From Gemmatimonadales bacterium (lineage in GTDB: Bacteria > Gemmatimonadota > Gemmatimonadetes > Gemmatimonadales > GWC2-71-9): a DNA stretch of 64,000 bases. Shown in pieces: positions 1 through 43,791 of the stretch (positions within the stretch are counted from its first letter, which is position 1; the number at the start of each line of letters is the position of its first letter). The position numbers and the translations under genes were made by a program. The DNA lies in the NCBI GenBank assembly GCA_033764135.1, contig JANRJE010000006.1, forward strand, positions 54,675 to 118,674. The letters run 5' to 3'. The notes beneath the pieces were generated by a model. That model saw only the letters and a list, made by a program, of their open reading frames with translations. It made no database searches and had not been told where the DNA came from.

Positions 1-1
1 C

Positions 2-496
2 GAGGACCTCAACGACGTCTCGGGATCCATGATGTACATGAAGGGCGCCTGGACGCTCCACATGCTGCGCGAAATGCTGGGCCATGATGCCTTCGACCGC
101 GGCATCCGCTCATACTACGCCGAGCACATGAACCGCAACGCGCAGACGGCGGACCTCCGGCGTCATCTGGAAGCAGCCAGCGGTCGCGATCTCGACTGGT
201 ATTTCAATCAGTGGCACTTCCAGGGCGGCATTCCCGTGCTGGCAGGCGCCTGGAAACCGGTCGATGGCGGCATCGAGATCGCCATCAGGCAGGTGCAGGA
301 CAGCAGGTATCGGTTCCAACTCGCCATCGAGGCAGACCTCGTCCACTCCGACGGAACGACCCGGCGCGTCACACTCGACATGCCCGCATCCGGCACAGTG
401 AAGCAGGTCATTGCCGTGGATGCGTCGGTCACCAATGTCGTTCTGGACCCTGAGACCCGGTTGCTCGCCGACTGGAAGTTCGAGCGGCAGCTGTAG
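2..496 (+). CDS. M1-family aminopeptidase (aminopeptidase N-like), C-terminal part; 5' end lies outside the window
   Basis: The frame is open from nt 2 with no stop. 'KGAWTLHMLREMLG...DWYFNQW' resembles the region downstream of the catalytic domain of M1 peptidases. Confidence 0.7.
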   Translation, partial: EDLNDVSGSMMYMKGAWTLHMLREMLGHDAFDRGIRSYYAEHMNRNAQTADLRRHLEAASGRDLDWYFNQWHFQGGIPVLAGAWKPVDGGIEIAIRQVQDSRYRFQLAIEADLVHSDGTTRRVTLDMPASGTVKQVIAVDASVTNVVLDPETRLLADWKFERQL

Positions 497-504
497 GGAG
501 GTTG
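461..504. repeat. 44-bp direct repeat, copy 1 (last 9 codons, stop and GGGAGG of the M1 peptidase gene)
   Basis: ttgcTcgccgactggaagttcgagcggcagcTgtagggaggttg matches 3436-3479 with 2 mismatches. Confidence 0.9.
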
Positions 505-758
505 CGATGGGAGGTTGCTTGTGTCAGTTCAGCTCATGTCCAGATCAGCTGGCTTCCTTGTCGAGAACGCAGTTCGTAATCAGGATCTCCAGCACCGTTG
601 GTGCTTGGCCAGAAGGTGCAGGGCGGCACATCGCGAAGACGGTCAGGTGGTCGCAACGCGTGCCCCCATGAAAGCGGGCGCCCAGTAGCCGCGATGATCG
701 TCAGTCTGGATGAGGAGAATCACCTCCGCTTCCCATTCCCCATGGAGCGTGAATCCGG

Positions 759-2849
759 TCAGGGAGAGCGACGCTGAAACAGCGGCCAGGTGCGGTGCAG
801 CCCGACGCTCAGCGCCGAGCGATGATCAAGCAGACCGCGACCCACATCGATGCGCAGAACCCCCAGATCTCCATCGGCGATGCCGATACGGATCCCCCCC
901 CCACCATCCAGATATAGCCGGTCGTCCCGCAATCCATCCGCCGCCCTGCTCACCCGGGCAGCATCGAGGAAGAGGCCCACGGCCACCCGGAACGGTCCGA
1001 CGCGATGGACGGGGTGGTCGCCCGCGAGTCCCGCGTGGAGGATGGTCCGACCTGCCGTCCGACCCCTGAGTTCACCGTTGCCGATCCCCGGTTCCGCCCG
1101 CAGCGGAATGGCCCAGGCGATGTCGTTGCCGGTCACCGGCCAGATGCCGAGCGGCGTCCGCCCGCTCACCCAGTCGGCTCCGAGCCGGGTCGACCAGGTT
1201 GCCCGGCTCAAGCCGGGCGAAGAGGCCCACATCGCCAGAATGCGGCCTCGCGTGTACGAGGAGGGAGCGGAGAGCGGTGCCGCCTGCTCCGCCAAGGCCG
1301 TCATCATGAATCGCTCGCGCCAGCCGTGCAACTCGGCCCCCGTTGATACCACCAGGAAATCCCGATCGCCGGACCATCGTTCAACCCGGACTCCCAGCGA
1401 TGGCCGTACCGCGGGGCTGATCCACCCGCCGAATTCCACCGCGGCCACTCGCCGCGAGTCCACGACCACCCCGGTTGCCGTGTCGAGGGCAAAGCGAACC
1501 CGCTCCCAGGCGCTCTCCATCCCAATCACCCCCGGAACCAACAGTCCGATTGGCAGGTCGGCCCGGAGCGCGACTCGTGGTCGGGCAGTCTCCCAGCGAT
1601 AAAGCGCGCTCCAGAGCTCCCCATTGCCGGTGGGACTGGCCACCTTGAGGTCCACTCTGCTGCGGGCCAATGCTCCGATCAGGCTGGCACCGGCCAAACG
1701 CCACGCCGGAGCCAGCAGCGGGCGTTCCACCACGGCGGCCCGAAGTTCCACCAGACCGCCACCCACCGGCTGATAGTGCACCGACGACGACAGCAGCGCC
1801 GGGATCTCGGCGACCCGGCGGCGAGCCAACGCCAGGTCTGATGGAGTGAGGATTGAAGCGTGGGGCACCGCCACAGCATCGGCGATCTTGCGATGCCGGA
1901 TATCGCGGGTCCCGTCTATCCGGAGCAGATCGACGATCGGTCGCCCGACCTGGTTCCAGGCGGAGAGGGCGCCATCTTGATCGTTGGTGAGGTACCGGCT
2001 GGTGGCCAGGATCTGCCACGCCAGTTCATCGTCGGGAACGATCGCCAGGTACCGCATGATGAGCGGGATGGCATCGGCGTGGCGTCCCTCCGTGAATCGG
2101 AGAGCGGCCATCTCCCGGAGGATCACCGGTTCCGCTGGGCAGGCCAGTCGGGCCTGCGCAAACAGGCTGTCGGCGGCATCCGGTCGGCCGGCAGCCACGG
2201 CGTCGAGCGCCGCATCGATCCAGGGGGCGCATGGCATCGGCTGAGGGGGGGGCACTGAGTCAACTTGCCCGGCTGCTGCATCATGCGACGGAGTCGGCAG
2301 CGGCATCGGCCGTATTGCCATGGTCCACCGCCGGGTCACGTCCCATCGCTTCAGGAAGGTGGCCTCATCGATCGTCATGAAGGGCGCGATGGCGGGATCA
2401 TGAACCACCACGTTACCACCGCCCCAGGCAAGCACGACGACATAGTGGTACTCGTCGCGTCCGGATTCGATCAGCGCCACAACCGGAGTGCTGTCGCGCA
2501 AGGACTGCCGGATCAGGTCGGGGGTGCCCTGGAACACCTCGGTGGCCCAGCCTCTGGCCCGGGTGGCCGAGTCGAGTTCCGTGGTGAGAATGCCACCCCG
2601 GTCATGCCGCACCAGCGCAGTGAAGTCCTCGGCGTAAACGCCCCGGCGACCCCACCATCGCTCGATCATCGCGACCGCAGCCCCGCCACAGAGCAGCACG
2701 GACTGCGGCAGGTACGGAACATCCAGGACCACAGGCAGAGCGGTGGACAACGGCGGAGAGGGTGATTGAGCCACCCCCACGCCGTTGCCCACCGCGATCA
2801 TGACTCCAGTTGCCGCCGCCGTGACCAGGCGCGCCAGAGGCATCATCAC
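759..2849 (-). CDS. Secreted C39-like cysteine peptidase domain + TPR-like region + POTRA-like/Omp85 (bacterial surface antigen) beta-barrel fusion
   Basis: N-terminal signal-like segment. The C39 signature is 'PQSVLLCGGAAVAMIERWWG' (Gln/Cys) and 'HYVVVLAWGGGNVVVHDP' (His/Asp). The C-terminus 'LYLDGGGGIRIG...LRIDVGRGL...SVGL' is typical of the last strands of Omp85 barrels. Confidence 0.6.
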   Translation of the reverse strand: MMMPLARLVTAAATGVMIAVGNGVGVAQSPSPPLSTALPVVLDVPYLPQSVLLCGGAAVAMIERWWGRRGVYAEDFTALVRHDRGGILTTELDSATRARGWATEVFQGTPDLIRQSLRDSTPVVALIESGRDEYHYVVVLAWGGGNVVVHDPAIAPFMTIDEATFLKRWDVTRRWTMAIRPMPLPTPSHDAAAGQVDSVPPPQPMPCAPWIDAALDAVAAGRPDAADSLFAQARLACPAEPVILREMAALRFTEGRHADAIPLIMRYLAIVPDDELAWQILATSRYLTNDQDGALSAWNQVGRPIVDLLRIDGTRDIRHRKIADAVAVPHASILTPSDLALARRRVAEIPALLSSSVHYQPVGGGLVELRAAVVERPLLAPAWRLAGASLIGALARSRVDLKVASPTGNGELWSALYRWETARPRVALRADLPIGLLVPGVIGMESAWERVRFALDTATGVVVDSRRVAAVEFGGWISPAVRPSLGVRVERWSGDRDFLVVSTGAELHGWRERFMMTALAEQAAPLSAPSSYTRGRILAMWASSPGLSRATWSTRLGADWVSGRTPLGIWPVTGNDIAWAIPLRAEPGIGNGELRGRTAGRTILHAGLAGDHPVHRVGPFRVAVGLFLDAARVSRAADGLRDDRLYLDGGGGIRIGIADGDLGVLRIDVGRGLLDHRSALSVGLHRTWPLFQRRSP

Positions 2850-2867
2850 TGCGTCAGCGCAGCAGGC

Positions 2868-3245
2868 CTACACTGACAGCAGAATGATGATCAGCAGGCC
2901 GATGATGATGGCGGTGGTGCTGATCACCACCTTGTCGGAACCACCAGCCAGGATCTGGTCATCGACCCCGGCCTGCTGGGCCAAACGATCCAATGACGCT
3001 CCGTCCAGGGCCGCCACCCGCGCGGACAGATCGGCCGAGCTCACTCCCATCCGGCCGGCCAACTGCCGGGCATCGTCGCTGGAAAGAAGCGACCGGACGG
3101 CCTCGCGATGGGCAGCCGGACGGGCGGCAACAGCGGCATCCAGATCGGCACCACGAACGGCGCTGCGGCTCTGAGCCACCACGGGAGAGGCAACGCCGAG
3201 CATGGCGAGTGCGGTGAGCAGGGAGAGCGAGCGACATGTGAACAT
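2868..3245 (-). CDS. Small Ala-rich secreted protein with C-terminal hydrophobic anchor (hypothetical)
   Basis: Signal peptide 'MFTCRSLSLLTALAMLGVASPVVAQ'. The C-terminus is '...LAGGSDKVVISTTAIIIGLLIIILLSV'. It lies 18 nt upstream of the C39/Omp85 gene on the same strand. Confidence 0.5.
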   Translation of the reverse strand: MFTCRSLSLLTALAMLGVASPVVAQSRSAVRGADLDAAVAARPAAHREAVRSLLSSDDARQLAGRMGVSSADLSARVAALDGASLDRLAQQAGVDDQILAGGSDKVVISTTAIIIGLLIIILLSV

Positions 3246-3435
3246 ACTGACTCCTCAAGGAAATGGCGGGTTGATACCCACCCGGTATCGAACACTGAAC
3301 ACTACCAGAGTGGGCCGCACCCGCCAATCGCTCTTTGGGTCTGGTCAGGACTACCTCGAAGGGATGAGTCGATCACAGCGGAGCCGGTGTGGCTGTAGCA
3401 GCTCGGGATCCGGCAAGAGCAGCTAGGCTCCTGTC

Positions 3436-3479
3436 TTGCCCGCCGACTGGAAGTTCGAGCGGCAGCAGTAGGGAGGTTG
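3436..3479. repeat. 44-bp direct repeat, copy 2
   Basis: ttgcCcgccgactggaagttcgagcggcagcAgtagggaggttg. It is intergenic and the flanks are unrelated to those of copy 1. Confidence 0.9.
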
Positions 3480-3640
3480 TGCCGGGCGGCGCACAGCTTC
3501 ATCATCAACAACTCATTGGTGCGGGCGGCGGCACTGGAAGTTCTGTCGTGGTGCGGCCAGCCCCTCAGTTCAGAAGGCAGTGCTTCCGAGCAATCCGGTG
3601 ACAGCCGTGGCAGCCGGATACATCCATATTCTTTATCATG

Positions 3641-4516
3641 TCACGACCCGAACCGTTCCCCACCTTGTTCACCCGCCCCCGGCATCACCACCGCGGACGG
3701 AGTGAATCCGAACTGCTTCCGGAAGGCGGCGGTAAAGTGGCTGTGACTCGAGAAGCCGCACTCGTGCGCAAGTCGCGACACCTGTCCCGCCGCGCCTTCG
3801 AGTCTCTCGAGCGCCACCCGAAGGCGCAGGTCACGACGGTAGCCATGGATCGTCGTACCGGTCTCCTCGCGGAACAGCCGGCAGAGATGCCATGGCGACA
3901 CCTCAAGCTCGGCGGCCAGGGTCGAGAGGTCAGGCGACTCGAAGAGCCGCCGGGCAATTGCCGCACGTGCCTGCATTGCCAGATCACGTCGGGCCAACGC
4001 CCCCCGCCGCCCGACCGGATGTCCAGACGCTGGCCGCTCGGGGGTGCGGATCGCCGCGGCAACAACGGCGAGCGCGCGCTCCTCTATTTCAAGCGAATCT
4101 GCGCGGTATTGAACCAGACCGAAGACCTCGCGCTGTGCGGCATAGAGGCGTGGGGACACCGGCCGGAACTCGGCTTGAAACGGCCGATCCGGATCCTCCC
4201 TCATGGAACCGCCAACCTCCCGCGCCATCGCCATGGCTATGGCCGGACTGATGCCGAACCAGTCGCTACGGTCACCATCCTGACTCAAATGCGCCCGCTT
4301 GTATGGTTGACCTCGGTTGTAGATGGTGGCCACATGCGGATCGGCCACGAATGGTCGCGACCCTTCATGACAAATCCACACGCTGGTGCGGGGAAAGACC
4401 ACGAGGTGATTATCGGCTGGGCCGCTGTCAGCGAAGCGGTGATCATCACGGGAACACCGGAAGATGCCGACCTTCAACAACGGGGATGAAAAAATGACGC
4501 GATCAACAAATGACAC
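3641..4516 (-). CDS. AraC-family transcriptional regulator
   Basis: C-terminal double HTH: 'LAAELEVSPWHLCRLFREETGTTIHGYRRDLRLRVAL...LAHECGFSSHSHFTAAFRKQFGFTPS'. Confidence 0.85.
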   Translation of the reverse strand: MSFVDRVIFSSPLLKVGIFRCSRDDHRFADSGPADNHLVVFPRTSVWICHEGSRPFVADPHVATIYNRGQPYKRAHLSQDGDRSDWFGISPAIAMAMAREVGGSMREDPDRPFQAEFRPVSPRLYAAQREVFGLVQYRADSLEIEERALAVVAAAIRTPERPASGHPVGRRGALARRDLAMQARAAIARRLFESPDLSTLAAELEVSPWHLCRLFREETGTTIHGYRRDLRLRVALERLEGAAGQVSRLAHECGFSSHSHFTAAFRKQFGFTPSAVVMPGAGEQGGERFGS

Positions 4517-4595
4517 GGTGACGCCCCGGTGCGAGACATGCTGCGCTGGACTCCGTCCTCAACTACGATGGAGCCTACTGCACTATACCCGGGAG

Positions 4596-5516
4596 ATGAT
4601 CCGGAGGGAAAGCGGGTCGCTGAAGTTCAGCGCACTCGGTCTCGCCGCGCTGGCCATCATCGGCTGCGGCAATTCACCGACTCTGGCAACCTATGAGGGA
4701 GATGATCGGGTCGAGAGCTTCATGCAGGCGGATTTCACGCGCCTCTACCGGGTCCACGTCCCGACCCGGGCCGAAGCGGGGCCCGTGGCACCGCTGGTCC
4801 TGGCATTCCACGGCAGTGGCCAGACCGGCGAACAACTGCGGGCGCAGTCCGGACTCGACCAGGCCGCCGATGCCGCCGGATTCATCGTGGTATATCTCCA
4901 GGCCGCCATGGGCGGCTGGGATGTCTTCGGCAGCTTCCAGTTCCTCGGCCTCGACGAGGTCGCCTACGTGCGCGAGGTGATCAGGCGCGTGGATCAGGCG
5001 CACGTCATCGATCAGGGCAGGATCATCGCCGTGGGACTCTCCAACGGAGGGGTGCTGGCTCAGCAACTCGGCTGCACCATGACCGATCGACTCGCCGGTT
5101 TCGTGGCCGTGGCTGCATCGATGCCCCGGCTGCTGGCCGAGAATTGCCGACCCAGCCGCCCGATCAGCGCACACTACATCCTCGGCACAGCCGACCCATT
5201 TTTTCCAATCGCGGGCAACGGTGCCCTGCTCCCCGTCGACAGCGTGATGCAGTTCTGGAGGAGGTCAAACGGTTGCTCCAGACAACGATTCCGCTGGACG
5301 CTGCCTGATCTCGACGGCGACAGCACGACGGTGTACCGGATCTGGGGCCTCCCATGCAGCGATGGCACGCGCACTGAACTGGACAGCATCATCGGGGGCG
5401 GTCACGCCTGGCCCGGTGGTGTCGTCCCCGCACCGGCATCGTTCGGACCCACCAGCCGCGACATCTCGGTCAACGAGGAGATTGCCAACTTCCTTGAACG
5501 GATCCCGCGCCGGTAA
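4596..5516 (+). CDS. PHB-depolymerase-family esterase (LpqC-like alpha/beta hydrolase), lipoprotein-type signal
   Basis: ATG at 4596 is preceded by GGGAG. Signal 'LAALAIIGCG', 'LVLAFHGSGQTGEQ' and nucleophile elbow 'GLSNGG'. Confidence 0.7.
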   Translation: MIRRESGSLKFSALGLAALAIIGCGNSPTLATYEGDDRVESFMQADFTRLYRVHVPTRAEAGPVAPLVLAFHGSGQTGEQLRAQSGLDQAADAAGFIVVYLQAAMGGWDVFGSFQFLGLDEVAYVREVIRRVDQAHVIDQGRIIAVGLSNGGVLAQQLGCTMTDRLAGFVAVAASMPRLLAENCRPSRPISAHYILGTADPFFPIAGNGALLPVDSVMQFWRRSNGCSRQRFRWTLPDLDGDSTTVYRIWGLPCSDGTRTELDSIIGGGHAWPGGVVPAPASFGPTSRDISVNEEIANFLERIPRR

Positions 5517-6450
5517 ACGCCGTCGCCATCCCCTCGATCAGCAACTGCGCGGCCATGTGCTGCGTCAGCTCGGCGTGGTCGAGATAGGGATTGACCTCGA
5601 CGAGGTCGAGTCCGACCATCCTGCCCCGGGAGGCCAGCCCCTGCATGATGCGCTTGATGTGGGTATAGCTGAGTCCCTCCGCCTCCGGACTCTCCGTGCC
5701 CGGCGCAATGGAGGGATCCAGCGCGTCGATGTCGATGCTCACGTAGTAATTCCCGAGTTCCGCGGGAAGCCGGTCGAGGATCCCCTGATGACCCAGGTCG
5801 AACACCTCGTAGTTGCTGAAGACCAGGTTGCCGCGCTCCAGTGTCTCCCGAAGCTCCCGGTCGGTCGACTTCACGCCGCGCACGCCGATGGTGATGATCC
5901 GCTCGACGAACGGCAGTTCCTGCGCTCTCCGGAACGGGCTGTTGTTGGTGAGCTTGAGCCCGAGCACTTCGTCGCGGTAGTCAAGGTGCGCGTCGAAGAG
6001 CACGATGGTGAGCGGATTGAAGCGGTCGAACGCCCGGATTGACGGATAGGAAATCGAATGATCCCCACCGATTACCACCGGCAGCGCTCCCCTGTTCAGG
6101 ATCGCCCTCACGCTGCTCTCGATGGCCGCCACATTCCGCTCGACATCATAGAATATCACGTCGGCGTCACCACAGTCGGCGATCCGGACTCCCTCGAGCA
6201 GCCGTCGATCCTGGTTGATGTCGAAATACCCCCGGGCCCCGCCACGCCCGATGAAGCCGAACCGCGTCGAGGCATCGCGAATCGAGCGCGGTGCCTGCCG
6301 GCAGCCGGGGCGCATGCCGGCAGCAGAGTCGGTGGGAACACCAAGAATGCCGACATCGGCGTCGAGTGTGTCGAGATCCTCGACAAAGGGCGCCTTGGCA
6401 AAGGTGGCGATCCCGGTGTGGGGCATTGATGACTGTCGTTCGCTGCTCAT
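5470..6450 (-). CDS. Ureohydrolase (agmatinase/guanidinobutyrase/arginase family)
   Basis: Mn-binding motifs 'GGDHSISYP', 'DAHLD' and 'SIDIDALDP'. ATG at 6450 has an AGGAAG RBS. It lies downstream of the reductase gene. Confidence 0.8.
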   Translation of the reverse strand: MSSERQSSMPHTGIATFAKAPFVEDLDTLDADVGILGVPTDSAAGMRPGCRQAPRSIRDASTRFGFIGRGGARGYFDINQDRRLLEGVRIADCGDADVIFYDVERNVAAIESSVRAILNRGALPVVIGGDHSISYPSIRAFDRFNPLTIVLFDAHLDYRDEVLGLKLTNNSPFRRAQELPFVERIITIGVRGVKSTDRELRETLERGNLVFSNYEVFDLGHQGILDRLPAELGNYYVSIDIDALDPSIAPGTESPEAEGLSYTHIKRIMQGLASRGRMVGLDLVEVNPYLDHAELTQHMAAQLLIEGMATAFTGAGSVQGSWQSPR

Positions 6451-6460
6451 GGCGCTTCCT

Positions 6461-7444
6461 TCAGAGATCCAGGGTGAGGTGACCGGAACGGGCACGCGAT
6501 ACGCACGTGCAGAGGTAAGATGACCGCATTTCCTGCGACAGACAGACGTCGCGATGATCGGGCTCGCCGTCGATCAGACGCGTCATGCACGAGCCGCATT
6601 CACCGCGGCCGCACTCCGATGGCGCCCACACTCCGGCCTTGAGGAGCGCCTCGAGTATCGTTTCACCCGGAGCAACCCGGACGGTGATGCCTGTGAGTGC
6701 CAGGTGGACATCAATGGCGCGATCGTCCGGCAGCTGTTTCGCTCCGAAGCTCTCGAAGTGCAGTTGACCCCTCGGCCACCCGAATTCCCCGGAGAGCTCG
6801 AGCACGCTCCGTATCATCCCCCGCGGCCCGCAGACGTAGAGGTGTACTCCGGGTTTCGGGTTCGCGAGCAGCGAGCGCAGATCCAGCGTCTTATGACCGG
6901 CGACTCGACTGTAGTAGAGATGGCCCGCCCCGCCATCGAGGGACCCGATGGTTTCGCGGAAAGCCATCTCCATTGGCGTCCGGGCCGTGTAATGCACCTC
7001 GAAGCTCTGTCCCTGCCGTTCAAGTGTCCTGATCATGCTCAGGATAGGCGTGATGCCGATACCTCCGGCGAGCATGACGCTGTGCTCCGCCCCCGGCGCC
7101 ATGGCGAAGGCGTTTTCCGGTGGAACGGCGCGCAGGACCGTGCCCTGCCCCACCTGCTGGTGCAGGTAGCGTGATCCACCTCGACCATCCGCCTCCAGGA
7201 GGACGGCGATCCTGTAACGATGCCTGTCCACCGGGTCACCGATGAGTGAATACGGCCGGAGCGCTCGCTGACCGTCGGGCAGCTCGACCTCTACTTCAAG
7301 GTGAGCACCGGCCTCGTATGCCGGGAGCATGCCGCTGTCGGCGGGGCGAAACTCGAAGGATCGAATCGAGCCGGTCTCGTCGTGAATGTCGGTGACGCGG
7401 AGGGCCAGCGTGGCACCATCGGCCGATGCTTCATGACTGTTCAT
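6461..7444 (-). CDS. PDR/VanB-type oxidoreductase (flavin + NAD-binding + plant-type 2Fe-2S domains)
   Basis: 'RPYSL' flavin motif, 'GGIGITP' NAD motif and C-terminal 'CGRGECGSC...C' cluster. ATGA overlap with the upstream gene at 7441-7444. Confidence 0.8.
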   Translation of the reverse strand: MNSHEASADGATLALRVTDIHDETGSIRSFEFRPADSGMLPAYEAGAHLEVEVELPDGQRALRPYSLIGDPVDRHRYRIAVLLEADGRGGSRYLHQQVGQGTVLRAVPPENAFAMAPGAEHSVMLAGGIGITPILSMIRTLERQGQSFEVHYTARTPMEMAFRETIGSLDGGAGHLYYSRVAGHKTLDLRSLLANPKPGVHLYVCGPRGMIRSVLELSGEFGWPRGQLHFESFGAKQLPDDRAIDVHLALTGITVRVAPGETILEALLKAGVWAPSECGRGECGSCMTRLIDGEPDHRDVCLSQEMRSSYLCTCVSRARSGHLTLDL

Positions 7445-8361
7445 GGGTTGAATGGCGAGGCGTCCAGAAACTCCCACGCTGCCTCGATCGGCAACGGCAG
7501 CTCAAGCGTCTCGACAATGTTGAAGTCCCAAAAGCGCCTGGTCCCTCCGGTGACCTGATCGGGATCATCGAGATCCCAGCGCAACTCCACCTCTCCTGCG
7601 AGCTGCAGTGTCCGCTGTCCTGCAAAGTCCGGAATCAGTATCCCGCCGCTTGGATGCACGGCGAAATTGCCGAGCGTATTGAACATGCTGTTGCCGGCGT
7701 AGTCGGGAATCCTGATGGTCGTGGGACTGGTCACCTGCACAAATCCTGGTCGCCCGCCACGATGTGATGCATCCGCGCCGTGTTCCGGGTGCAGACTAGC
7801 CACGAACAGCGTGTCCGCCATTTCGATCATCATCTGTTGCTCGGGCGCAAGGGCCTTGCCATGAATCGGTTCAGCCAGCGGTTCGATTCGCGCCTTCGAC
7901 CGTTTGGTGAGGTGACGGCGCTGGATGTACTTCGGGCAATTGGGATACGCCCGTTCCACCGCCAGACTCAATGACTCGGCGCCGATCGACACTCTGCCGC
8001 TGATCCGCAACCGACGGCGGGTGGCGAGTTCGATCAGCAACAAACCGATCCGGTCGTCCGCGGCGATATTCTGCCAGAACGGATCGTCTTTGTGACGGGA
8101 TGCCTCAACCAGATCGATGTCGATCTGTTGCGTGGTCTTCGCTGCGATGAACCCGGGATCGCCGAAGCTCAACGAGGCCCACGGCCGCGAATCGCGGTCG
8201 ATGCTGGTCATCACCGCCATCTGCTGCTGGCCGATGAAACCAAGCGCCGGAACGGGAATGGCCGACCCGATCACCCGGCCGTTGATGTCCGCCCTGCCGC
8301 GTTCACCGGCTCGCTCCTGGACCAGCCGCTCTCCCTCATGATATGGACTCTCGATTCGCAT
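7441..8361 (-). CDS. Pyridoxamine 5'-phosphate oxidase-like FMN-binding split-barrel protein
   Basis: N-terminus 'SPYHEGERLVQERAGERG' is typical of the PNPOx-like family that pairs with PDR-type reductases. Translationally coupled to the next gene. Confidence 0.7.
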   Translation of the reverse strand: MRIESPYHEGERLVQERAGERGRADINGRVIGSAIPVPALGFIGQQQMAVMTSIDRDSRPWASLSFGDPGFIAAKTTQQIDIDLVEASRHKDDPFWQNIAADDRIGLLLIELATRRRLRISGRVSIGAESLSLAVERAYPNCPKYIQRRHLTKRSKARIEPLAEPIHGKALAPEQQMMIEMADTLFVASLHPEHGADASHRGGRPGFVQVTSPTTIRIPDYAGNSMFNTLGNFAVHPSGGILIPDFAGQRTLQLAGEVELRWDLDDPDQVTGGTRRFWDFNIVETLELPLPIEAAWEFLDASPFNP

Positions 8362-8463
8362 GGCTCCGTCCGTTGGGAATGGACCGGCAGCGGTGGATTG
8401 CTCACCAGGCTGCCGACCCTTCCCGTGGCGACCGGCCCCGGCACTCGTCGAGGCGCGGTCAGG

Positions 8464-8841
8464 TCAGAACGTCAGGATGGCATAACCCTGATCTACCAGA
8501 TTCCTGAGACTCGGCAACCCTGGTGTACCGGGAATCGGGTTGTCGGTGATCAAGTCGAAGCCGTTTTTCTCCGCCGCTTCGGTGGCACCAAACACCTCCG
8601 CGCAGCCACACGACACCCCTGCGACCTTGTCAGCGACGGCGTTGAAGAGGACGTGGCAGGGGTGCTCGGGACTCGTCAAGTACCCGGTCCAGCGAGTGCC
8701 GGCGCCCTGGAAGAGCACGGTCACTTCGTCGCCCCGCGCCTTGAAGTCGTAGGCCGCAGCGAGGCCGTTGAAGAGTCGACCGAGCGCCTCTTCAGTCTGT
8801 TGGGCCGGATCGGCCATGATGATGATTGCAGCTTTGTGCAT
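8464..8841 (-). CDS. DsrE/DsrF-like family protein
   Basis: 'MHKAAIIIMADP...VTVLFQGAGTRW' layout with conserved Cys ('GVSCGC'). About 125 aa, the size typical of DsrE-like proteins. Confidence 0.55.
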   Translation of the reverse strand: MHKAAIIIMADPAQQTEEALGRLFNGLAAAYDFKARGDEVTVLFQGAGTRWTGYLTSPEHPCHVLFNAVADKVAGVSCGCAEVFGATEAAEKNGFDLITDNPIPGTPGLPSLRNLVDQGYAILTF

Positions 8842-8875
8842 CCTGATCCTCGTTGGTTGATGAAACAATCGTTCG

Positions 8876-8895
8876 CTATACCGAACGTTCGGTAA
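8876..8895. promoter_or_regulatory. Palindromic operator (putative TetR site) upstream of the DsrE-like gene
   Basis: ctaTACCGAACGTTCGGTAa. The core at 8879-8894 is a perfect 16-bp palindrome. A near-identical copy is at 9528-9547. Confidence 0.6.
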
Positions 8896-8925
8896 CAGCC
8901 GCGCCCAAGAAAAAGTTCCCGGCGC

Positions 8926-9480
8926 TTATCCCCCGAGCAACTGCTCGGGCAGCTCCGCCAGCACCCGCCGAAATGGTGCTGGGTCCCCCTTGATTCGCGA
9001 CACGATCAGCGCCCCCTGGATCAAGGTGATCGCCCGCTCCGCCCGCCTGGCCGCGACCTCCTCGTCGTACCCTGCCGCGGCGACCGCGGCAGCCAGCTCC
9101 CCCGCCCACAGATCGAGAGCGTCTCTAGTCATCCGCCTGAGCGCGCTCCCGGCCTCCCCGATCGACAACGCGTCGAGCAAACACGACTTCTCACCAGATT
9201 GGTAGAAGGCATCCAACTGCCTGGTCATCGCCAGCACCCGATCGCGTATCGGCAGCGATTGGTCCCTCAAAGGAACCAGCGCCACTGTGTCCAGCCAGAC
9301 CCGGGCCCGGTCCATCACCGCCTCGGCCATCTGGGCCTTCCCACCCGGAAAACGGTGATAAAGACTGGCCTTGGCAAGCCCTGTCGCCTCAGCGATAGCA
9401 GCCAGACTCGCCCCCTCGTACCCGTATTGCCGGAATACATCGGTGAGTGTCACCAGGATCTGCTCTTCGGAGAGCACCAT
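8926..9480 (-). CDS. TetR-family transcriptional regulator
   Basis: N-terminal HTH 'FRQYGYEGASLAAIAEATGLAKASLYHRFPGGKAQM'. ATG at 9480. Confidence 0.85.
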   Translation of the reverse strand: MVLSEEQILVTLTDVFRQYGYEGASLAAIAEATGLAKASLYHRFPGGKAQMAEAVMDRARVWLDTVALVPLRDQSLPIRDRVLAMTRQLDAFYQSGEKSCLLDALSIGEAGSALRRMTRDALDLWAGELAAAVAAAGYDEEVAARRAERAITLIQGALIVSRIKGDPAPFRRVLAELPEQLLGG

Positions 9481-20506: not shown

Positions 20507-20958
20507 ACGTCTGCTCCTGTGAGGGTGGAGATGTACCAGTGACGCAGCGCGTGGGTGGTGTCTACCCAAGTTCCCAACCTCCCGAAGGAGCAAGAAAAGG
20601 GGCTCCACGTAATGCGAGTGGCTGGGCATTTGGGCAATTCCCAGGCCAGCAATCGGAAATGCCAACTCGTTGCAAGACAAATGTTTACGCGACCCAGCAA
20701 CAGGAATATCTGTGGCAACAAATCATCGCACGTTGCGTTGATGCAACACTTTTTCATTGGGGATCCTCCTGCCCTTGTGTCGAGTGAGAACCACATATCA
20801 CTCGCCACTGCTTCGGCATCCTACGGCGCCTCAGCATCGACTCGCCAGCGGGACCGCCGATCGATCGGCCTGTGATGCCGACGATCCCGCGACGACTGGC
20901 GCGAGCCGCCGGACCTGATCAACTTGTCCGGCTATCAGTCTACTTCCCCGGAGATCCG

Positions 20959-24269: not shown

Positions 24270-26933
24270 TTGCCCGAAGGAAACAACGCCGCCCGGACAG
24301 CCGAAGCCAACCGGATCGCCGAAAACGACGACGGCCGCTGGTGGCGATGGGGTCCCTATCTGAGCGAACGGCAATGGGGCACCGTGCGGGAAGATTACAG
24401 CGCCGACGGCTCCGCGTGGGACTATTTCCCCCACGACCATGCCCGCAGCCGGGCCTATCGCTGGGGCGAGGACGGTCTGGCCGGCTTCAGCGACGTGAAT
24501 CAGGAGGTTTGCCTCTCGCTGGCGCTCTGGAACGGGCAGGACCCGATCCTCAAGGAGCGGCTCTTCGGCTTGACCAACGGCGAGGGCAATCACGGCGAGG
24601 ACGTCAAGGAACTCTACTACTACCTCGATGCCACGCCGTCGCATTCCTATCTCCGGATGCTCTACAAATATCCGCACGCCGCTTTTCCATACAATGCCAT
24701 CATCGAGGCCAACGCCAATCGCGGCGTTGCAGACCGCGAGTTCGAGCTGCTCGACACCGGTGTGTTCGACGGGCAGCGCTATTTCGACGTCGAAGTGGAA
24801 TACGCCAAGGCCGCCCCCGACGACATCCTGATGCGGGTTACCGTCCACAACCGCGGACCGGAGACCGCCACCTGCCATGTCATGCCGCAGGTGGTGTTCC
24901 GCAACACCTGGTCGTGGGATCACGAGGCCCCGCGCCCGGCGCTGATGCGCACCGGCCCGGCATCGGTCACCCTGATCCACACCGATCACTCCAGGCAGCG
25001 ACTGCACTCCGACGGCACCCCGACGCTGATCTTCACCGAGAACGAATCCAACGCCGAACGACTCTGGGGCGTCACTGCCGAGCAGTCACAGTACGTCAAG
25101 GACGCCTTTCACGCCTGGGTCATCGACGGCAATCACGCGGCTGTGAATCCGGCCCAGGAAGGAACCAAGGCGGGCTTCCTGCGCGAGCTGACGATTCCAC
25201 CCGGCGAGTCGCGGCAACTGCGCCTGCGCCTGACGGAGCTGGACCATCAGGAAGCGTTGGCAGATTTCGACACCGTGCTCGCGACCCGTCGCGCCGAGGC
25301 CGACGCCTTTTATGATCAAATGCACGGCACCCTGAACGCCGATGCCCGCAACGTGCAGCGACAGGCCTATGCCGGCCTGATCTGGAGCAAGCAGGTCTTC
25401 CGGTTCGACGTGCGCCGCTGGCTGGCTGGCGACCCGACCCAACCTCCCCCCCCCGCCGTTCGTCGCCGCGGCCGCAACAGCGGCTGGCAGCACCTCGACG
25501 CCTTCGAGGTGCTCTCGATGCCCGACGCCTGGGAGTATCCGTGGTTCGCGGCCTGGGACCTGGCCTTTCACACCATCCCGCTGGCGCGGCTCGACCCAGC
25601 CTTCGCCAAGCAGCAACTCGACGTCCTCACCCGCGAGTGGTATCTGCACCCCAACGGGCAGTTGCCCGCCTATGAATGGGCGTTCGGCGACGTCAACCCG
25701 CCGGTTCATGCCTGGGCCACCTGGCGGGTGTTCCAGATCGACCGCGAGCAGCGCGGCGACGCTGGCGACCTGGTCTTCCTGGAGCGGGTCTTCCACAAGC
25801 TGCTGCTCAACTTCACCTGGTGGGTCAACCGCAAGGACTCCGACGGCCGCAACATCTTTCAGGGCGGCTTCCTCGGCCTCGACAACATCGGCCTCTTCGA
25901 CCGCAGTGCGCCGCTGCCGACCGGCGGCCACATGCACCAGTCCGACGGCACCAGCTGGATGGCGATGTATTCGCTCAATCTGCTGCAGATCTCGCTCGAG
26001 CTGGCACTCCACAACCCGGTCTACCAGGACATCGCCACCAAGTTCTTCGAGCACTTCCTGGCAATTGCCCACGCCATGACCGACATGGGTGGCGACGGCG
26101 TGGGGCTCTGGGACGAGGAGGACGAGTTCTTCTACGATGAGCTCCACCTCCCCGACGGCAAGCACGTGCCGCTCAAGGTTCGCTCGATGGTGGGGTTGAT
26201 TCCGCTCTTCGCGGTCGAGGTGATGGAGCACTCCTGCCTCGATGAGTTGCCGGAATTTGCCAGGCGGCTCAACTGGTTCCTCGAGCAGCGTCCCGATCTC
26301 GCCACTCTGGTCTCGCGCTGGTACGAACCCGGCACCGGGGAGCGTCACCTGCTGTCACTGCTCCGGGGCCACCGCATGAAGCGGCTGCTGACCCGGCTGC
26401 TGGATGAGACCGAGTTTCTCGCTCCGCACGGTGTACGCGCCCTGTCGCGCTATCACCTCGACCACCCCTATTCGCTGACGATCAACGGAGGAGCCACTCA
26501 TACCGTGCAGTATGAACCGGGTGAGTCGAGTTCCCGTCTCTTCGGTGGCAACTCCAACTGGCGCGGACCGATCTGGTTTCCGGTCAACTACCTGCTGATC
26601 GAGTCGTTGCTGAAATTTCACCGCTATTACGGCGACGATTTCCGGATCGAGTGCCCGACCGGTTCGGGCGAGTACACCACCATTCGCGGCGTGGCGGAGG
26701 AGTTGACCCGGCGGCTGACCTCGCTCTTCATGCCCGACGCAGCCGGCCGCAGGCCGATATTCGGCAACGACGAACTGTTCCGGTCCGACCCGCATTTCCA
26801 CGATCACCTGCTGTTCCACGAGTATTTCCACGGTGACGACGGTCACGGACTCGGCGCTTCGCATCAGACCGGCTGGACCGCACTCGTCGCCGAACTGCTG
26901 CACATCTCCTCGACGGCGGAGCAGCGGTCATGA
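24270..26933 (+). CDS. GH63/MGH1-like glycoside hydrolase (glucosidase)
   Basis: 'RWWRWGPYLSERQWGTVREDYS...AWDYFPHDHARSRAYRWGEDG' N-terminus. TTG start at 24270 behind AGGAG. Confidence 0.6.
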   Translation: MPEGNNAARTAEANRIAENDDGRWWRWGPYLSERQWGTVREDYSADGSAWDYFPHDHARSRAYRWGEDGLAGFSDVNQEVCLSLALWNGQDPILKERLFGLTNGEGNHGEDVKELYYYLDATPSHSYLRMLYKYPHAAFPYNAIIEANANRGVADREFELLDTGVFDGQRYFDVEVEYAKAAPDDILMRVTVHNRGPETATCHVMPQVVFRNTWSWDHEAPRPALMRTGPASVTLIHTDHSRQRLHSDGTPTLIFTENESNAERLWGVTAEQSQYVKDAFHAWVIDGNHAAVNPAQEGTKAGFLRELTIPPGESRQLRLRLTELDHQEALADFDTVLATRRAEADAFYDQMHGTLNADARNVQRQAYAGLIWSKQVFRFDVRRWLAGDPTQPPPPAVRRRGRNSGWQHLDAFEVLSMPDAWEYPWFAAWDLAFHTIPLARLDPAFAKQQLDVLTREWYLHPNGQLPAYEWAFGDVNPPVHAWATWRVFQIDREQRGDAGDLVFLERVFHKLLLNFTWWVNRKDSDGRNIFQGGFLGLDNIGLFDRSAPLPTGGHMHQSDGTSWMAMYSLNLLQISLELALHNPVYQDIATKFFEHFLAIAHAMTDMGGDGVGLWDEEDEFFYDELHLPDGKHVPLKVRSMVGLIPLFAVEVMEHSCLDELPEFARRLNWFLEQRPDLATLVSRWYEPGTGERHLLSLLRGHRMKRLLTRLLDETEFLAPHGVRALSRYHLDHPYSLTINGGATHTVQYEPGESSSRLFGGNSNWRGPIWFPVNYLLIESLLKFHRYYGDDFRIECPTGSGEYTTIRGVAEELTRRLTSLFMPDAAGRRPIFGNDELFRSDPHFHDHLLFHEYFHGDDGHGLGASHQTGWTALVAELLHISSTAEQRS

Positions 26934-27658
26934 TGCTGCCGCCGGGGATGGTGGCGCTGACCACGGCACAGATGATCGAGGTCGACCGGGCGATGGTCGA
27001 TGACTTTCACATCGAGCTGATCCAGATGATGGAGAATGCCGGCCGTCATCTGGCCGACCTGGCACGATCACGCTTTCTCGATGGCGACCCGCGCGGCAGG
27101 GAGGTTGTGGTCCTGGCCGGGACCGGTGGCAATGGCGGTGGCGCTCTCGTCGCCGCGCGGCGACTGCATTGCTGGGGTGCCAATGTCCGCGTGGTGGTCA
27201 CCGCCAGTGACCAGAAGTTCACGCCGGTCCCCGCCCAACAGCTCGATATCGTCAACCGGATGGGGATCCCGGTGGCTCGCCACCACTCGCTCGCCGGGAT
27301 GACTGCCGACCTGATCCTCGATGGAGTGATCGGCTACAGCATCAACGGCGCTCCCCGCGGCGAGGCGGCGGAGTTGATCCGCTGGAGCCGCGAACAGTCG
27401 GCGCCGGTCTTGTCGCTCGATGTCCCCTCCGGCTTCGAGCCGGACAGCGGAGTGAGCCATGATCCTGCTGTTCGTGCGACGGCCACCCTGACGCTGGCCC
27501 TCCCCAAGGTCGGACTGCTGGCGCCGGAGGCAGCCGATCATGTCGGCGAGCTGTATCTGGCGGATATCGGCGTACCGGCGTCGCTGTATGCGGGACCCGG
27601 ACTCAACCTTGCGATTGAGCCGATCTTCGCCCGGTCGGAGATCATCCGGATTGCCTGA
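26930..27658 (+). CDS. NAD(P)H-hydrate epimerase (YjeF N-terminal domain)
   Basis: 'LIQMMENAGR...VVVLAGTGGNGGGALVAARRL'. ATGA overlap with the upstream gene. Confidence 0.8.
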   Translation: MMLPPGMVALTTAQMIEVDRAMVDDFHIELIQMMENAGRHLADLARSRFLDGDPRGREVVVLAGTGGNGGGALVAARRLHCWGANVRVVVTASDQKFTPVPAQQLDIVNRMGIPVARHHSLAGMTADLILDGVIGYSINGAPRGEAAELIRWSREQSAPVLSLDVPSGFEPDSGVSHDPAVRATATLTLALPKVGLLAPEAADHVGELYLADIGVPASLYAGPGLNLAIEPIFARSEIIRIA

Positions 27659-34678: not shown

Positions 34679-36342
<1,664 letters not shown>

Positions 36343-36432
36343 TGCGGAGAGCTCCGGTCAGAGTGAGTGGTCGGGACACCGCCAGCGCCATCGGGTCAGG
36401 CGTTCACTTTCCCGAGGCGTGGCGCACGACTA

Positions 36433-36463
36433 ACCTTAGTCCTGTACCTTGGTACGGAGTCAA
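36433..36463 (-). promoter_or_regulatory. mer promoter/operator (PmerT-type): -35 TTGACT, 19-bp spacer containing the MerR dyad, -10 TAAGGT
   Basis: The minus strand reads TTGACTccgtaccaaggtacaggacTAAGGT. The Tn21 merOP, recalled from memory, is TTGACTccgtacatgagtacggaagTAAGGT. Confidence 0.75.
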
Positions 36464-36466
36464 GAG

Positions 36467-36889
36467 ATGAGTTCAGCATCACCGGACGGCCTCACCATCG
36501 GGGCATTGGCCTCGACTGCCGGGGTGGGGGTCGAGACGGTCCGCTTTTATCAGCGGCGCGGCTTGTTGCGCCAACCTGACCGGGCTTGGGGGCGGGTTCG
36601 GCGGTACAGCGGGGCCGACGCGGCGCGGATCCGCTTCATCAAGTCGGCGCAGCGGATGGGGTTCAGTCTGGTCGAGGTGGCGGGACTGCTGGAGCTGGAC
36701 AATGGCCGGCATTGTGATGAGGCGCGGGTGGCTGCCGAGCGGAAGCTGTCGTTGGTGCGGGCCAAGCTGGCCGATCTGGAGCGGGTCGAGGCCGCCCTGG
36801 TCACCCTGGTGGAAGCCTGCGACGCCGCGTCGGGCGAGGTCCGCTGTCCTTTGATCGATGCCTTGCAGCACGACGACGTAGTCCAATGA
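36467..36889 (+). CDS. merR: Hg(II)-responsive transcriptional regulator MerR
   Basis: 'LTIGALASTAGVGVETVRFYQRRGLL' HTH. Three metal-binding Cys are in canonical positions ('GRHCDEA', 'EACDAASGEVRCPLI'). Confidence 0.9.
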   Translation: MSSASPDGLTIGALASTAGVGVETVRFYQRRGLLRQPDRAWGRVRRYSGADAARIRFIKSAQRMGFSLVEVAGLLELDNGRHCDEARVAAERKLSLVRAKLADLERVEAALVTLVEACDAASGEVRCPLIDALQHDDVVQ

Positions 36890-36928
36890 GTACCGCATCT
36901 GACACCAATCATGCCGAGGAGGCCTACG

Positions 36929-37450
36929 ATGTCCGCCAGTGAAACCGAGCCGTGGTTGCGCGGACCGATTGAGGGGATTCCCGCTCTGCTCCTTCCGGCC
37001 GCGCACGCCTTCCAGATGGCGTGGGAGGATGTCGAGCGGGCGGTGATCGGGCTCACCCACAAACAGGTATGGCACCGCGTCGAGGGTATCCCACCGCTCG
37101 GCTTCCACTTGGCGCACCTCTCCGGCAGCACCGACCGGTTGCTGAGTTATGCGCGGGGCGAGGCGCTCACCCCGGCGCAGCGCGAGGTGCTGCTCAGCGA
37201 GCGCACGTTGATGGACACTCGACCGGCGTTGAGCGTGATGCTTGAGCGGTGGCGGTCGACGGTTCAAGTGGCCCAGGTACAGCTCGCCGCGACTGATGAG
37301 GCGACGCTGTTGGAGCCGCGTCTGGTTGGTCGGCGCGAGCTGCCATCGACGGTTTTGGGGTTGATCTTCCACGCGGCCGAACACGCAGCCCGGCACACGG
37401 GCCAGGTGGTGACGACGGCGGCGGTGGTGAGGGGGGTGGGGGGGAGGTAG
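36929..37450 (+). CDS. DinB-family (DinB/YfiT-like four-helix-bundle) protein
   Basis: 'WHRVEGIPPLGFHLAHLSGSTDRLL...HAAEHAARHTGQVV' His triad pattern. Confidence 0.7.
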   Translation: MSASETEPWLRGPIEGIPALLLPAAHAFQMAWEDVERAVIGLTHKQVWHRVEGIPPLGFHLAHLSGSTDRLLSYARGEALTPAQREVLLSERTLMDTRPALSVMLERWRSTVQVAQVQLAATDEATLLEPRLVGRRELPSTVLGLIFHAAEHAARHTGQVVTTAAVVRGVGGR

Positions 37451-37489
37451 GGGTGGGGGGGTAGAGTCGTGGGGATGGTTCGGGGGGGG
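37431..37489 (+). repeat. G-run tract (G6, G7, G4, G7, G4, G8 within about 60 nt), G-quadruplex-prone
   Basis: ggggggtgggggggaggtaggggtgggggggtagagtcgtggggatggttcgggggggg. It overlaps the DinB stop codon and sits at the GC-content drop. Confidence 0.8.
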
Positions 37490-37603
37490 TCCGGGTTTGC
37501 CGTGCTCCGGGATTAGGTTGCGGGTGGATGGTTTTGGTGCAGTATAATTGAAACGAAAAGTAGTTAGGTAGCGAGCACCGAAGCCTGAAAGGACCCGAGC
37601 GAG

Positions 37604-38476
37604 ATGCAAATTTTGGACGAGACAGTAAAGACCGCCGTCACAGACCGTCTTCAAAAGGTCGAGGAACACTTCGAAGGAGATGTGGCGTTTTTCTATGGGT
37701 CGATCGATATCTCAGTCATGCGCGTCTTTCGAGACTTCGTTGAACGAATGGCGGCTTCCAAGTCCCCGGATCGAAACAGACTCATCTTCTTTCTCAACAC
37801 CCCTGGTGGTAGCGCTGAGATCGCCGAGAAGATGGTCGAAATCGTGCGGCATCACTACGCCGAGATATACTTCGTCATCCCGGATGTCGCGTTCTCTGCT
37901 GGCACGATCCTTTGCATGGCTGGGGACCGGATCTACATGGACTATTCCTCGGCTTTGGGGCCGATCGACCCTCAGGTCTGGAACGGGAAGGAGTGGGTTC
38001 CGGCACTCGGCTACCTTGACAAAGTAGAAGGACTGCTGAAGAAGGCTTCCGACGGGACCCTCACGAATGCAGAGTTTCTGATCCTTCAGAATCAGGATCT
38101 CGCTCTGCTCGCGCGCTATGAGCAGGCACGCGATCTAACGGTTACGCTGCTGAAGAAATGGCTGGTAGAATTCAAGTTCAGAAACTGGGAGACGCACCGG
38201 AGCGATCCTGTGAAGATGGGGCACACTGTGACCGATGACGAGAAGCAGGAGCGCGCGGAACAGATCGCACGCATGCTTGGGGACAACAAGCTATGGCACT
38301 CGCACGGCAGGATGATCGGTCCTAGAACGCTGACCCAAATTCTCCGACTGGAGATCAACGACTACTCTACCGATCAGGCGCTACGGCCGTTGATTCGGTC
38401 CTACAACGATCTCTTAACCGATTACATCGCGCGCGGCGGTTTCAACTTATTCATGCATAATCGCGACTTTTTCTGA
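37604..38476 (+). CDS. Clp-fold serine protease of the SDH ('serine dehydrogenase proteinase', SppA/ClpP-like) family
   Basis: 'FFLNTPGGSAEIAEKMV', 'VIPDVAFSAGTILCMAGD' (nucleophile Ser) and 'LGPIDPQV'. Lower-GC codon usage. Confidence 0.7.
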   Translation: MQILDETVKTAVTDRLQKVEEHFEGDVAFFYGSIDISVMRVFRDFVERMAASKSPDRNRLIFFLNTPGGSAEIAEKMVEIVRHHYAEIYFVIPDVAFSAGTILCMAGDRIYMDYSSALGPIDPQVWNGKEWVPALGYLDKVEGLLKKASDGTLTNAEFLILQNQDLALLARYEQARDLTVTLLKKWLVEFKFRNWETHRSDPVKMGHTVTDDEKQERAEQIARMLGDNKLWHSHGRMIGPRTLTQILRLEINDYSTDQALRPLIRSYNDLLTDYIARGGFNLFMHNRDFF

Positions 38477-38488
38477 GAAGGAGGAGTG

Positions 38489-38698
38489 ATGCCAGTTGTT
38501 GAGGATCTGAAGAAAGCGTTCGGCACGTTTCCTGCGGTTACGCCAGATCCAGCAGAGTTGGCGCGCCTGCAGCAGTTTTTCGCCGCGATGAAGACGGCAG
38601 GCATCGCGAAGACGCGCGAGTACGATCTTCCCCAGCCGGATACCATCGGGCGCGCTGCGGTGAACCTGCCCCTCCGCGGCCACCTAACTCGCCGATGA
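38489..38698 (+). CDS. Small hypothetical protein (69 aa) coupled to the protease gene
   Basis: Strong SD GAAGGAGGAG, with the ATG 12 nt after the protease stop. No recognisable domain. Confidence 0.5.
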   Translation: MPVVEDLKKAFGTFPAVTPDPAELARLQQFFAAMKTAGIAKTREYDLPQPDTIGRAAVNLPLRGHLTRR

Positions 38699-40447: not shown

Positions 40448-40480
40448 TGGTAAGCGCGCTAATGCCCATCAATATGTTTG

Positions 40481-42380: not shown

Positions 42381-42463
42381 CTTGCATCGCGGATGGTTAG
42401 GGCGCGGTGTACTTGAAAGTATGGAGTTAGGAAGCCAGACCGAATTACAACGGAGGCCGACCC

Positions 42464-43772: not shown

Positions 43773-43791
43773 GGTTTAAATTTGGTGGGGC

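Follow-up and report, generated by a model that had tools for sequence, protein, structure and literature searches.

How did a module of two genes come to lie directly behind the last codons of a peptidase gene without damaging that gene? The question is raised by a stretch of 64,000 nucleotides from a Gemmatimonadales bacterium (assembly GCA_033764135.1, contig JANRJE010000006.1, positions 54,675 to 118,674), which we refer to as the window. At its left edge, the 3' part of an M1-family metallopeptidase gene (2..496, plus strand, cut by the window edge; Pfam Peptidase_M1, 1.2e-13) is followed by two minus-strand genes that lie between a pair of 44-bp direct repeats. An initial annotation of the window had interpreted the repeats as the footprint of a site-specific insertion that preserves its target gene, and the two-gene module as a cassette that arrived in this way. 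Our comparison with relatives makes it very probable that a 2,931-bp insertion has its two junctions at these repeats and duplicated 44 bp of its target, and that this insertion is present in some conspecifics and absent in others. In the following, we describe the repeats, the empty and filled alleles, and the routes by which the insertion may have been generated.

A direct repeat that duplicates the end of a peptidase gene

Recomputation reproduced the repeat pair of the initial annotation: the copies at 461..504 and 3436..3479, both on the plus strand, are identical at 42 of 44 positions and differ at 465/3440 (T/C) and 492/3467 (T/A). Both contain an identical 25-nt core, their longest stretch without a mismatch measures 26 nt in the window (27 nt in the type represented by contig L051), and the similarity fades outward, with 89% identity over 54 nt when the alignment is extended. 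Copy 1 reads TTG CTC GCC GAC TGG AAG TTC GAG CGG CAG CTG TAG, followed by GGAGGTTG, and thus consists of the final 11 sense codons of the peptidase open reading frame (ORF), encoding LLADWKFERQL, its stop codon, and 8 further nt, the ORF ending at 496. The earlier statement that copy 1 supplies the 3' end and stop codon of the peptidase gene is borne out, but the nine codons that were then counted have to be corrected to 11. Copy 2 is a pseudo-3'-end of the same gene, as it reads LPADWKFERQQ in frame and retains the stop codon. No gene body lies 5' of it, and its left flank has no relation to the peptidase gene, in agreement with the earlier description of its flanks as unrelated.

A repeat of this kind could in principle be a dispersed intergenic sequence or a chance match. 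With up to three mismatches allowed, however, the 44-mer was matched exactly twice in the 64-kb window, and 100 shuffles that preserved the dinucleotide composition gave no match at all. Elsewhere, only peptidase 3' ends were matched in the 62 fetched loci and in metagenome and viral scans, and the sole return of the metagenome pattern scan was an outgroup peptidase gene. The search for further copies that had been recommended along with the initial annotation therefore gave no indication of dispersal in the window, the fetched loci, or the metagenome and viral scans, and as no match was found beyond peptidase orthologues, we rejected this possibility. The retained peptidase frame and stop codon of copy 2 also argue against a chance match.

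The sequence GGGAGGTTG occurs seven times in the window, where 0.64 occurrences are expected from shuffles (496-504, 509-517, 3471-3479, 4213-4221 on the minus strand, 20575-20583 on the minus strand, 25440-25448 on the minus strand, and 27099-27107). Three of the seven copies are positioned at repeat junctions and four within ORFs; it was rejected as a recurring site because the four copies outside the locus are all inside ORFs.

Empty and filled alleles in one species-level population

The window is 100% identical to contig L049 of the Logan assemblies, and the recovered relatives comprise five lineages of one species-level population with 95–98% nucleotide identity. Two contigs, L047 (SRR22388273) and L048 (SRR19759252), carry the gene order M1 peptidase, AraC, esterase, arginase, with nothing between the peptidase and AraC genes. 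They stem from independent sequencing runs and short-read assemblies, have lengths of 22 kb and 26 kb, and are 97–98% identical to the window. In blastn, window positions 1-504 aligned with L047 8904-9407, and positions 3436-9000 with L047 9364-14928, resulting in an overlap of exactly 44 bp. The empty allele thus carries exactly one 44-mer, and the insert that is absent from L047 and L048 corresponds to 505..3435 (2,931 bp). This is the uninterrupted peptidase–AraC junction with a single repeat copy for which the initial annotation had suggested to look in relatives.

The 2,931-bp insert is present in five or more other lineages. Filled alleles with identical junctions were found in the window/L049, in L001 (GCA_034377365.1), in L051–L055, and in L057. 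L056 and L062 are also filled, with contigs that end inside the module and show only the left junction. The module is absent from the outgroup peptidase orthologues L006 and L007 (83% and 78% identity) and L046. An arrangement shared by all relatives had been named beforehand as an observation that would speak against an insertion, and this is not the case, as L047 and L048 are empty.

The comparison also clarifies the fate of the target gene, for which full-length orthologues of 576 aa were available from L001, L047, and L049. The peptidase ORF of the window ends inside copy 1, and its C-terminus agrees with the orthologues save for the last residue. The reading frame of the peptidase gene is thus undamaged in copy 1, whereas copy 2 is a dead duplicate. 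The C-terminus ...ERQR* is found in L001 and L047 as well as in the outgroups L006 and L007, and as this end is ancestral in the orthologues, the CTG in copy 1 and the CAG in copy 2 of the window are later point changes.

As the empty contigs are short-read assemblies, they might be suspected to result from an assembly collapse across the repeat. However, the longest exact run shared by the copies (26–27 nt) is shorter than the 31-mers that we take the Logan assemblies to use, and the empty junction was obtained in two independent runs. Moreover, L047 and L048 differ from the filled contigs in other respects: in L047, a TonB-dependent receptor takes the place of the Tricorn-like protease of the others and the Phd-ParE toxin–antitoxin pair is missing, structural differences that distinguish both empty contigs, and private single nucleotide polymorphisms (SNPs) are found near their junction. 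Together with the rarity of the 44-mer, these points leave a collapse, or a chance or dispersed repeat, with a negligible probability.

Repeat alleles and a possible reciprocal recombination

Two positions of the repeat are informative with respect to the route of insertion. Copy 1 has T at position 5 and A at position 17 in all filled haplotypes. Copy 2 has C at position 5 in every filled haplotype, combined with G at position 17 in L051–L055 and L057, and with A at position 17 in the window/L049 and L001. The empty site of L047 and L048 has T at position 5 and G at position 17, and its 44-mer is thus chimeric, with the left part as in copy 1 and the right part as in copy 2. This allele pattern fits a single reciprocal crossover between positions 5 and 17 without any extra mutation. 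As judged from the sequences, the crossover could have been the integration of a circle with C5/A17 into a site with T5/G17, or, equally well, a precise deletion between the repeats.

We prefer a reciprocal recombination of the attachment site (att)-like or Campbell type and give it close to an even chance, because it accounts for the topology, for the allele pattern without extra mutation, and for the lasting polymorphism. In such a scenario, a circular form of the module would have contained the peptidase 3' end as a 44-bp copy, and this 44-mer would have recombined reciprocally with the chromosomal 44-mer, catalyzed by a recombinase that was supplied in trans or has since been lost, or by RecA acting on the short homology. 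Copy 1 would be the attL-like and copy 2 the attR-like product, and the same repeats would allow a precise loss and re-entry of the module, which would keep the locus polymorphic. The circle would be expected to join position 3435 through one 44-mer to position 505, with the junction sequence ...GCTCCTGTC-[44-mer]-CGATGGGAGG.

The flanks of the empty allele give some indication of its history. Close to the junction, there are many private differences at positions where L049, L051, and L057 agree, which means that the empty allele did not arise recently from these haplotypes. The flanking SNPs form a mosaic, in which the middle part of the peptidase gene places the empty allele closest to the haplotype of the window, but within ~350 nt of the junction on both sides it is private. 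The empty allele could represent a precise secondary loss rather than the state before the insertion. Among the filled lineages, the divergence of the module is about that of the flanks (95.3–97.1%), and since the module is as diverged as its flanks and the junctions are identical, the event predates the split of the sampled lineages.

Several observations weigh against a reciprocal recombination. To generate T5/A17 versus C5/G17, a plain duplication followed by two substitutions in 88 nt would suffice, at a background divergence of ~3%. Recombinase or integrase domains were found neither in the 36 window ORFs that were scanned, including 30 of the largest beyond 11 kb, nor in the ~10 kb annotated with Pfam to the left and to the right of the locus in relatives, as already noted for the immediate neighborhood in the initial annotation, and none of the relatives examined has an integrase-bearing element at the peptidase 3' site. 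The folding of the junctions is no better than that of shuffles (z 0.03 and 0.23). As a rare accessory gene, the target would be odd for a specialized att site, and the reciprocal model leaves it without explanation why the incoming DNA contained 44 bp of the peptidase gene. Finally, the left junction shows a stutter, with the 10-nt sequence GGGAGGTTGC occurring twice, 13 nt apart (the second copy at 509-518), and TTGC is a possible reading at either end of the duplicated segment; the two features look more like scars left by a polymerase or by end joining. Thus, the empty alleles support the arrival of the two-gene module as a cassette, but the site specificity that had been assumed is not backed by any integrase, cognate element, or att-like structure in our data.

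These scars draw attention to a different route, in which a linear foreign fragment was integrated illegitimately and without site specificity, the 44-bp duplication being a by-product and not an att site. Such an event could have been a homology-facilitated illegitimate recombination anchored in the peptidase gene, an end joining at a staggered break, or a template switch as in break-induced replication that is mediated by microhomology (MMBIR), all of which have in common that the return or join point is 44 bp upstream of the departure point. The lack of a detectable recombinase in the scanned ORFs and in the flanks of relatives agrees with this route, as do the GGGAGGTTGC stutter and the possible TTGC microhomology at both boundaries. 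The C at position 5 of every copy 2 could be the last donor base of the junction and not a later mutation. The locus is, furthermore, a mosaic of other non-homologous replacements without repeats (AraC and esterase versus thioredoxin-like and HxlR genes, a 4.9-kb block in L001, the Phd-ParE indel), and copy 2 is directly adjoined by a relic of 79 nt that stems from a hydrolase 3' end. MMBIR-type events yield duplications with templated junction insertions (PMC2621351), illegitimate routes require no dedicated recombinase, and our locus is similar in showing short repeated or templated sequence at a junction and gene-end relics at neighboring junctions. However, the homology-anchored version requires that the module was already located next to this peptidase gene in the donor, and no such donor arrangement is known. 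The right junction has no clear microhomology beyond 3–4 nt, and an extra substitution is required to explain A17 in copy 1 versus G17 in copy 2 and the empty site. Illegitimate events also more often delete the target, and a 44-bp target duplication is not their usual outcome. We regard an illegitimate integration as the main rival, somewhat unlikely but with a considerable probability.

Comparison with known integrating elements

Reciprocal recombination at the 3' end of a gene is known from several types of elements, and the closest resemblance is seen with cis-mobilizable elements (CIMEs), which are integrase-less islets bounded by attL and attR that have kept their att sites and lost their integration and transfer genes (PMC6323972, ICEberg 2.0). 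As in CIMEs, there is a small insert consisting of cargo only, its direct repeats duplicate the 3' end of an intact target, and conspecifics have an empty site in which the repeat is present once. Unlike in CIMEs, no cognate integrative and conjugative element (ICE), integrative and mobilizable element (IME), or integrase is known for this site, the repeat is only a candidate recombinase substrate, the host is an uncultured member of the Gemmatimonadales, and the target is a rare accessory peptidase gene. The insert thus has the structural characteristics of a CIME, namely direct repeats, empty site, and intact target, but lacks a cognate recombinase or parent element.

It could be a CIME in the strict sense if it were the decayed remnant of a larger ICE, IME, or prophage that formerly had an integrase of its own and had entered the 3' end of the peptidase gene. 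The combination of repeats that duplicate a 3' end, an empty site, and missing integration and transfer genes corresponds to the CIME definition (PMC6323972), and ~128 extra bp in the insert of L001 (L001 7322-7444, at window position 3402/3403), which the other filled haplotypes do not have, indicate that the content of the insert has changed. Yet all filled lineages share the same 2.9-kb content and the same junctions, none of the relatives examined has a larger element or an integrase at this site, the insert ends of 250 bp and 45 nt contain no gene remnants, and there is no link to phages. A decayed element is therefore improbable. Phage cargo was rejected, as neither the 44-mer nor a relative of the larger, 696-aa module protein was present in viral contigs.

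Genomic islands and ICEs that use tyrosine recombinases to integrate into the 3' ends of tRNA or protein genes are similar in that the element-proximal copy restores the 3' end of the gene, that direct repeats are tens of bp long, and that the chimeric attB/attL/attR pattern is compatible with one crossover. They differ from our case, in which no tRNA and no integrase were found, the insert comprises only 2.9 kb, and no arm-type repeats or structures are detectable; a tRNA or transfer-messenger RNA target was not found at the locus, and Rfam gave no match. A Campbell-type single crossover likewise predicts an insert that is flanked by a duplication of the shared segment and can be precisely reverted by the same repeats, but it requires a circle that already carried 44 bp of the target. 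A homology of 44 bp is near the lower limit for RecA-mediated exchange.

Other mobile elements do not match the locus. A transposon or insertion sequence with the 44-mer as target-site duplication would explain the direct duplication that flanks the insert, but terminal inverted repeats are lacking at the insert ends (as good a score was reached by 57 of 500 shuffles), no transposase is present, and the window contains only one copy of the insert. Target-site duplications generated by transposases typically have 2–15 bp, and 44 bp are far outside this range. A transposon is so improbable that we regard it as effectively refuted. An integron gene cassette with an attC site was rejected as well, since the junctions show no palindromic structure and no integrase was found. 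In conclusion, the insertion resembles an att-flanked islet that has no integrase and sits at the 3' end of a protein-coding gene, and a small insertion with a duplication of the target 3' end is of a known kind. The repeat itself adds little new on integration mechanisms, unless the enzymology proves to be unusual.

Source of the inserted module

In the assembly GCA_034377365.1, a second, paralogous module is located 15 kb from the inserted one (L002 7602-10085). This paralogue is flanked by a Transgly_assoc gene on one side and, on the other, by a PAS histidine kinase gene that is followed by a KaiC-like gene, and the same context is found in the relative L004 (6106-8592). The two modules are 76% identical at the protein level and ~79% at the DNA level, and the DNA homology is limited to window positions 750-3391. 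In a phylogenetic tree, the inserted module (A) forms a long branch beside the clade of the paralogue (B). In the sister lineage of the window's lineage (L051–L054), a β-lactamase-family gene is found at the place that corresponds to that of the paralogue. Some lineages may have only the inserted copy and no paralogue.

The synonymous divergence (dS) between A and B is 0.58–0.68, whereas it is 0.06–0.12 among the A haplotypes, and the repeat copies differ at only 2–4 of 44 positions. The high dS in comparison to the few repeat differences means that the module entered the site long after its split from the paralogue. A fresh duplication of the paralogue 15 kb away was rejected on the same grounds, as the dS of ~0.6 between the modules is incompatible with repeats that differ at 2–4 of 44 positions. 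We infer that the module came from a diverged source, probably through horizontal transfer or because an old paralogue was relocated.

The ends of the insert have no such relatives. In the region upstream of the module (3246..3435), the homology to the paralogue extends to 3391, and the remaining 45 nt are insert-specific, without a homologue in anything searched. At the other end, the non-coding segment 505..758 contains ~115 hypervariable nt with a 4-nt indel, followed by a conserved part (620-750) in the alignment of haplotypes. No homologue of this tail of 250 bp was found in any fetched locus or in the flank of the paralogue, and the absence of similarity to the neighbors of the paralogue, the fast evolution, and the frame-breaking indel led us to reject it as a gene remnant.

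The genes of the inserted module

The only credible genes between the repeats are 759..2849 and 2868..3245, both on the minus strand, as ORF and Pfam scans confirmed in agreement with the initial annotation; the remaining ~250 bp and ~190 bp are non-coding. The larger gene encodes a protein of 696 aa that is composed of a signal peptide, a C39-like cysteine peptidase, a TPR region, a POTRA domain, and an Omp85-type β-barrel, as assigned by Pfam, AlphaFold2, and Foldseek. Pfam matched C39 and TPR, and no Pfam Omp85 family was matched at E 0.01. The AlphaFold2 model, which was built from 56 homologues and has a mean predicted local distance difference test score of 84.9, shows a C39 fold, TPR helices, one POTRA-like domain (305-375), and barrel strands (398-685). 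In Foldseek, TamA and BamA were the top matches, aligned with the C-terminal half, with E-values from 8e-15 (TamA, 4c00) to 1e-10. Judged from the predicted structure, the order of POTRA-like domain and barrel strands agrees with the Omp85 superfamily, which is characterized by a POTRA domain followed by a closed 16-strand β-barrel, and the former label as a C39/Omp85 fusion thus holds. The predicted POTRA and barrel superpose with those of TamA and BamA, but there is only a single POTRA domain, and an N-terminal C39 peptidase and TPR replace the POTRA array.

The smaller gene codes for a partner of 125 aa with a signal peptide and an invariant Gly-Gly that directly precedes a hydrophobic C-terminal tail. 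It matches Pfam DUF6627 and the NCBIfam family PA2779_fam (NF033919), the latter with 38.3 bits at a cut-off of 40, and the best NCBIfam match of the 696-aa protein is the PA2778 family (NF033920), with 46.1 bits and thus below the curated cut-off of 150. As both scores are under the curated cut-offs, the inserted pair is related to the PA2778 and PA2779 families without being a member of either. In the PA2778/PA2779 pair of Pseudomonas aeruginosa, a gene for a C39 and TPR protein is likewise found beside a gene for a small protein of ~120 aa, but the inserted peptidase has an additional ~390 aa that comprise the POTRA domain and the Omp85 barrel. Functional literature on the PA2778/PA2779 pair was not found.

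The dN/dS ratio (nonsynonymous to synonymous divergence) of the 696-aa gene is 0.15–0.36 among haplotypes, and the small partner is 98–99% identical among haplotypes and 78–81% identical to the paralogue; because of this dN/dS and the conservation of the partner, the module is regarded as functional and under purifying selection. Homologues of the fusion protein are widespread in metagenome-assembled genomes (MAGs) of Gemmatimonadales and Longimicrobiales, with 50–60% identity. We can imagine a papain-like protease in the periplasm, anchored by the outer-membrane barrel, that would process or export the small partner at the conserved Gly-Gly, and the small partner may be a substrate of the C39 protease.

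The target gene and its hypervariable neighborhood

The nearest homologues of the M1 peptidase outside the species come from MAGs labeled Bacteroidota, Bacteroidetes, or Rhodothermales (L006, L007, and L046, with 83%, 78%, and ~70% identity), whereas homologues labeled Gemmatimonadota reach at most ~60% identity. This distribution suggests that the target gene itself was horizontally acquired.

On the other side of the insertion site, an AraC-family regulator gene (3641..4516, minus strand; Pfam HTH_18, 3.4e-22) is the right-hand neighbor. Between copy 2 and this gene lies the 79-nt relic of the 3' end of an α/β-hydrolase gene (Abhydrolase_6; 3483..3561, plus strand), which begins 3 nt past copy 2, reads RAAHTFIINNSLVRAA.LEIL..., belongs to the original downstream flank, and is also present in the empty allele. 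The relic shares 84–88% identity with the genuine 3' end of the hydrolase gene that lies upstream of the peptidase gene, and hydrolase 3'-end sequences are found at L049 2711-2789 and at L047 7419-7491 and 9411-9483. As a hydrolase 3' end is thus present on both sides, the peptidase gene itself is bracketed by a second, older direct repeat.

It is tempting to regard the stretch from the hydrolase to the arginase gene as a recombinase-independent hotspot of accretion, in which genes are added at the 3' end of a resident gene with duplication of its last 40–80 bp. The peptidase gene would then have entered first, leaving the 79-nt hydrolase relic, and the C39–Omp85 module would be the next layer. 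If true, this would be an undescribed route of integration in Gemmatimonadota that preserves the target gene without a linked integrase. The underlying idea of nested duplications, in which the relic would be the scar left when the peptidase gene itself was inserted, is not supported, because the hydrolase gene adjoins a C92 peptidase gene in distant relatives and in L001, and no hydrolase–AraC junction was found among the relatives examined. It may just as well be that the AraC block brought the relic along, and we consider such an accretion hotspot quite improbable.

The stretch from the hydrolase to the arginase gene is hypervariable among relatives. In L001 (6466-7247), thioredoxin-like and HxlR genes replace the AraC and esterase genes of window positions 3472-5470, with the left breakpoint exactly after the TAG of copy 2, the right breakpoint at the stop codon of the arginase gene, and no flanking repeats. 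Only L001 has the 4.9-kb block of four genes (C92-HAD-DUF4396-ADH) 5' of the peptidase gene. Its hydrolase gene is only 85% identical to the others, with neighboring genes at 91–95%. Farther downstream in the window, the region 36000-48000 has a GC content of 0.57–0.60, as compared to 0.64–0.66 elsewhere, and contains a run of ORFs without Pfam matches, a DUF4145 protein (41288-41983), and an N6/N4 DNA methylase (43830-44861). This region is possibly a foreign defense or restriction island.

Conclusions

The locus marks a small hypervariable island in this Gemmatimonadales species. With both alleles sampled, it is a clean natural example, from an uncultured phylum, of the gain or loss of a two-gene outer-membrane module that spares the neighboring gene. 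The pair of a C39–Omp85 protein and its Gly-Gly partner, which is conserved across Gemmatimonadota and apparently unstudied, is probably a more useful lead than the repeat.

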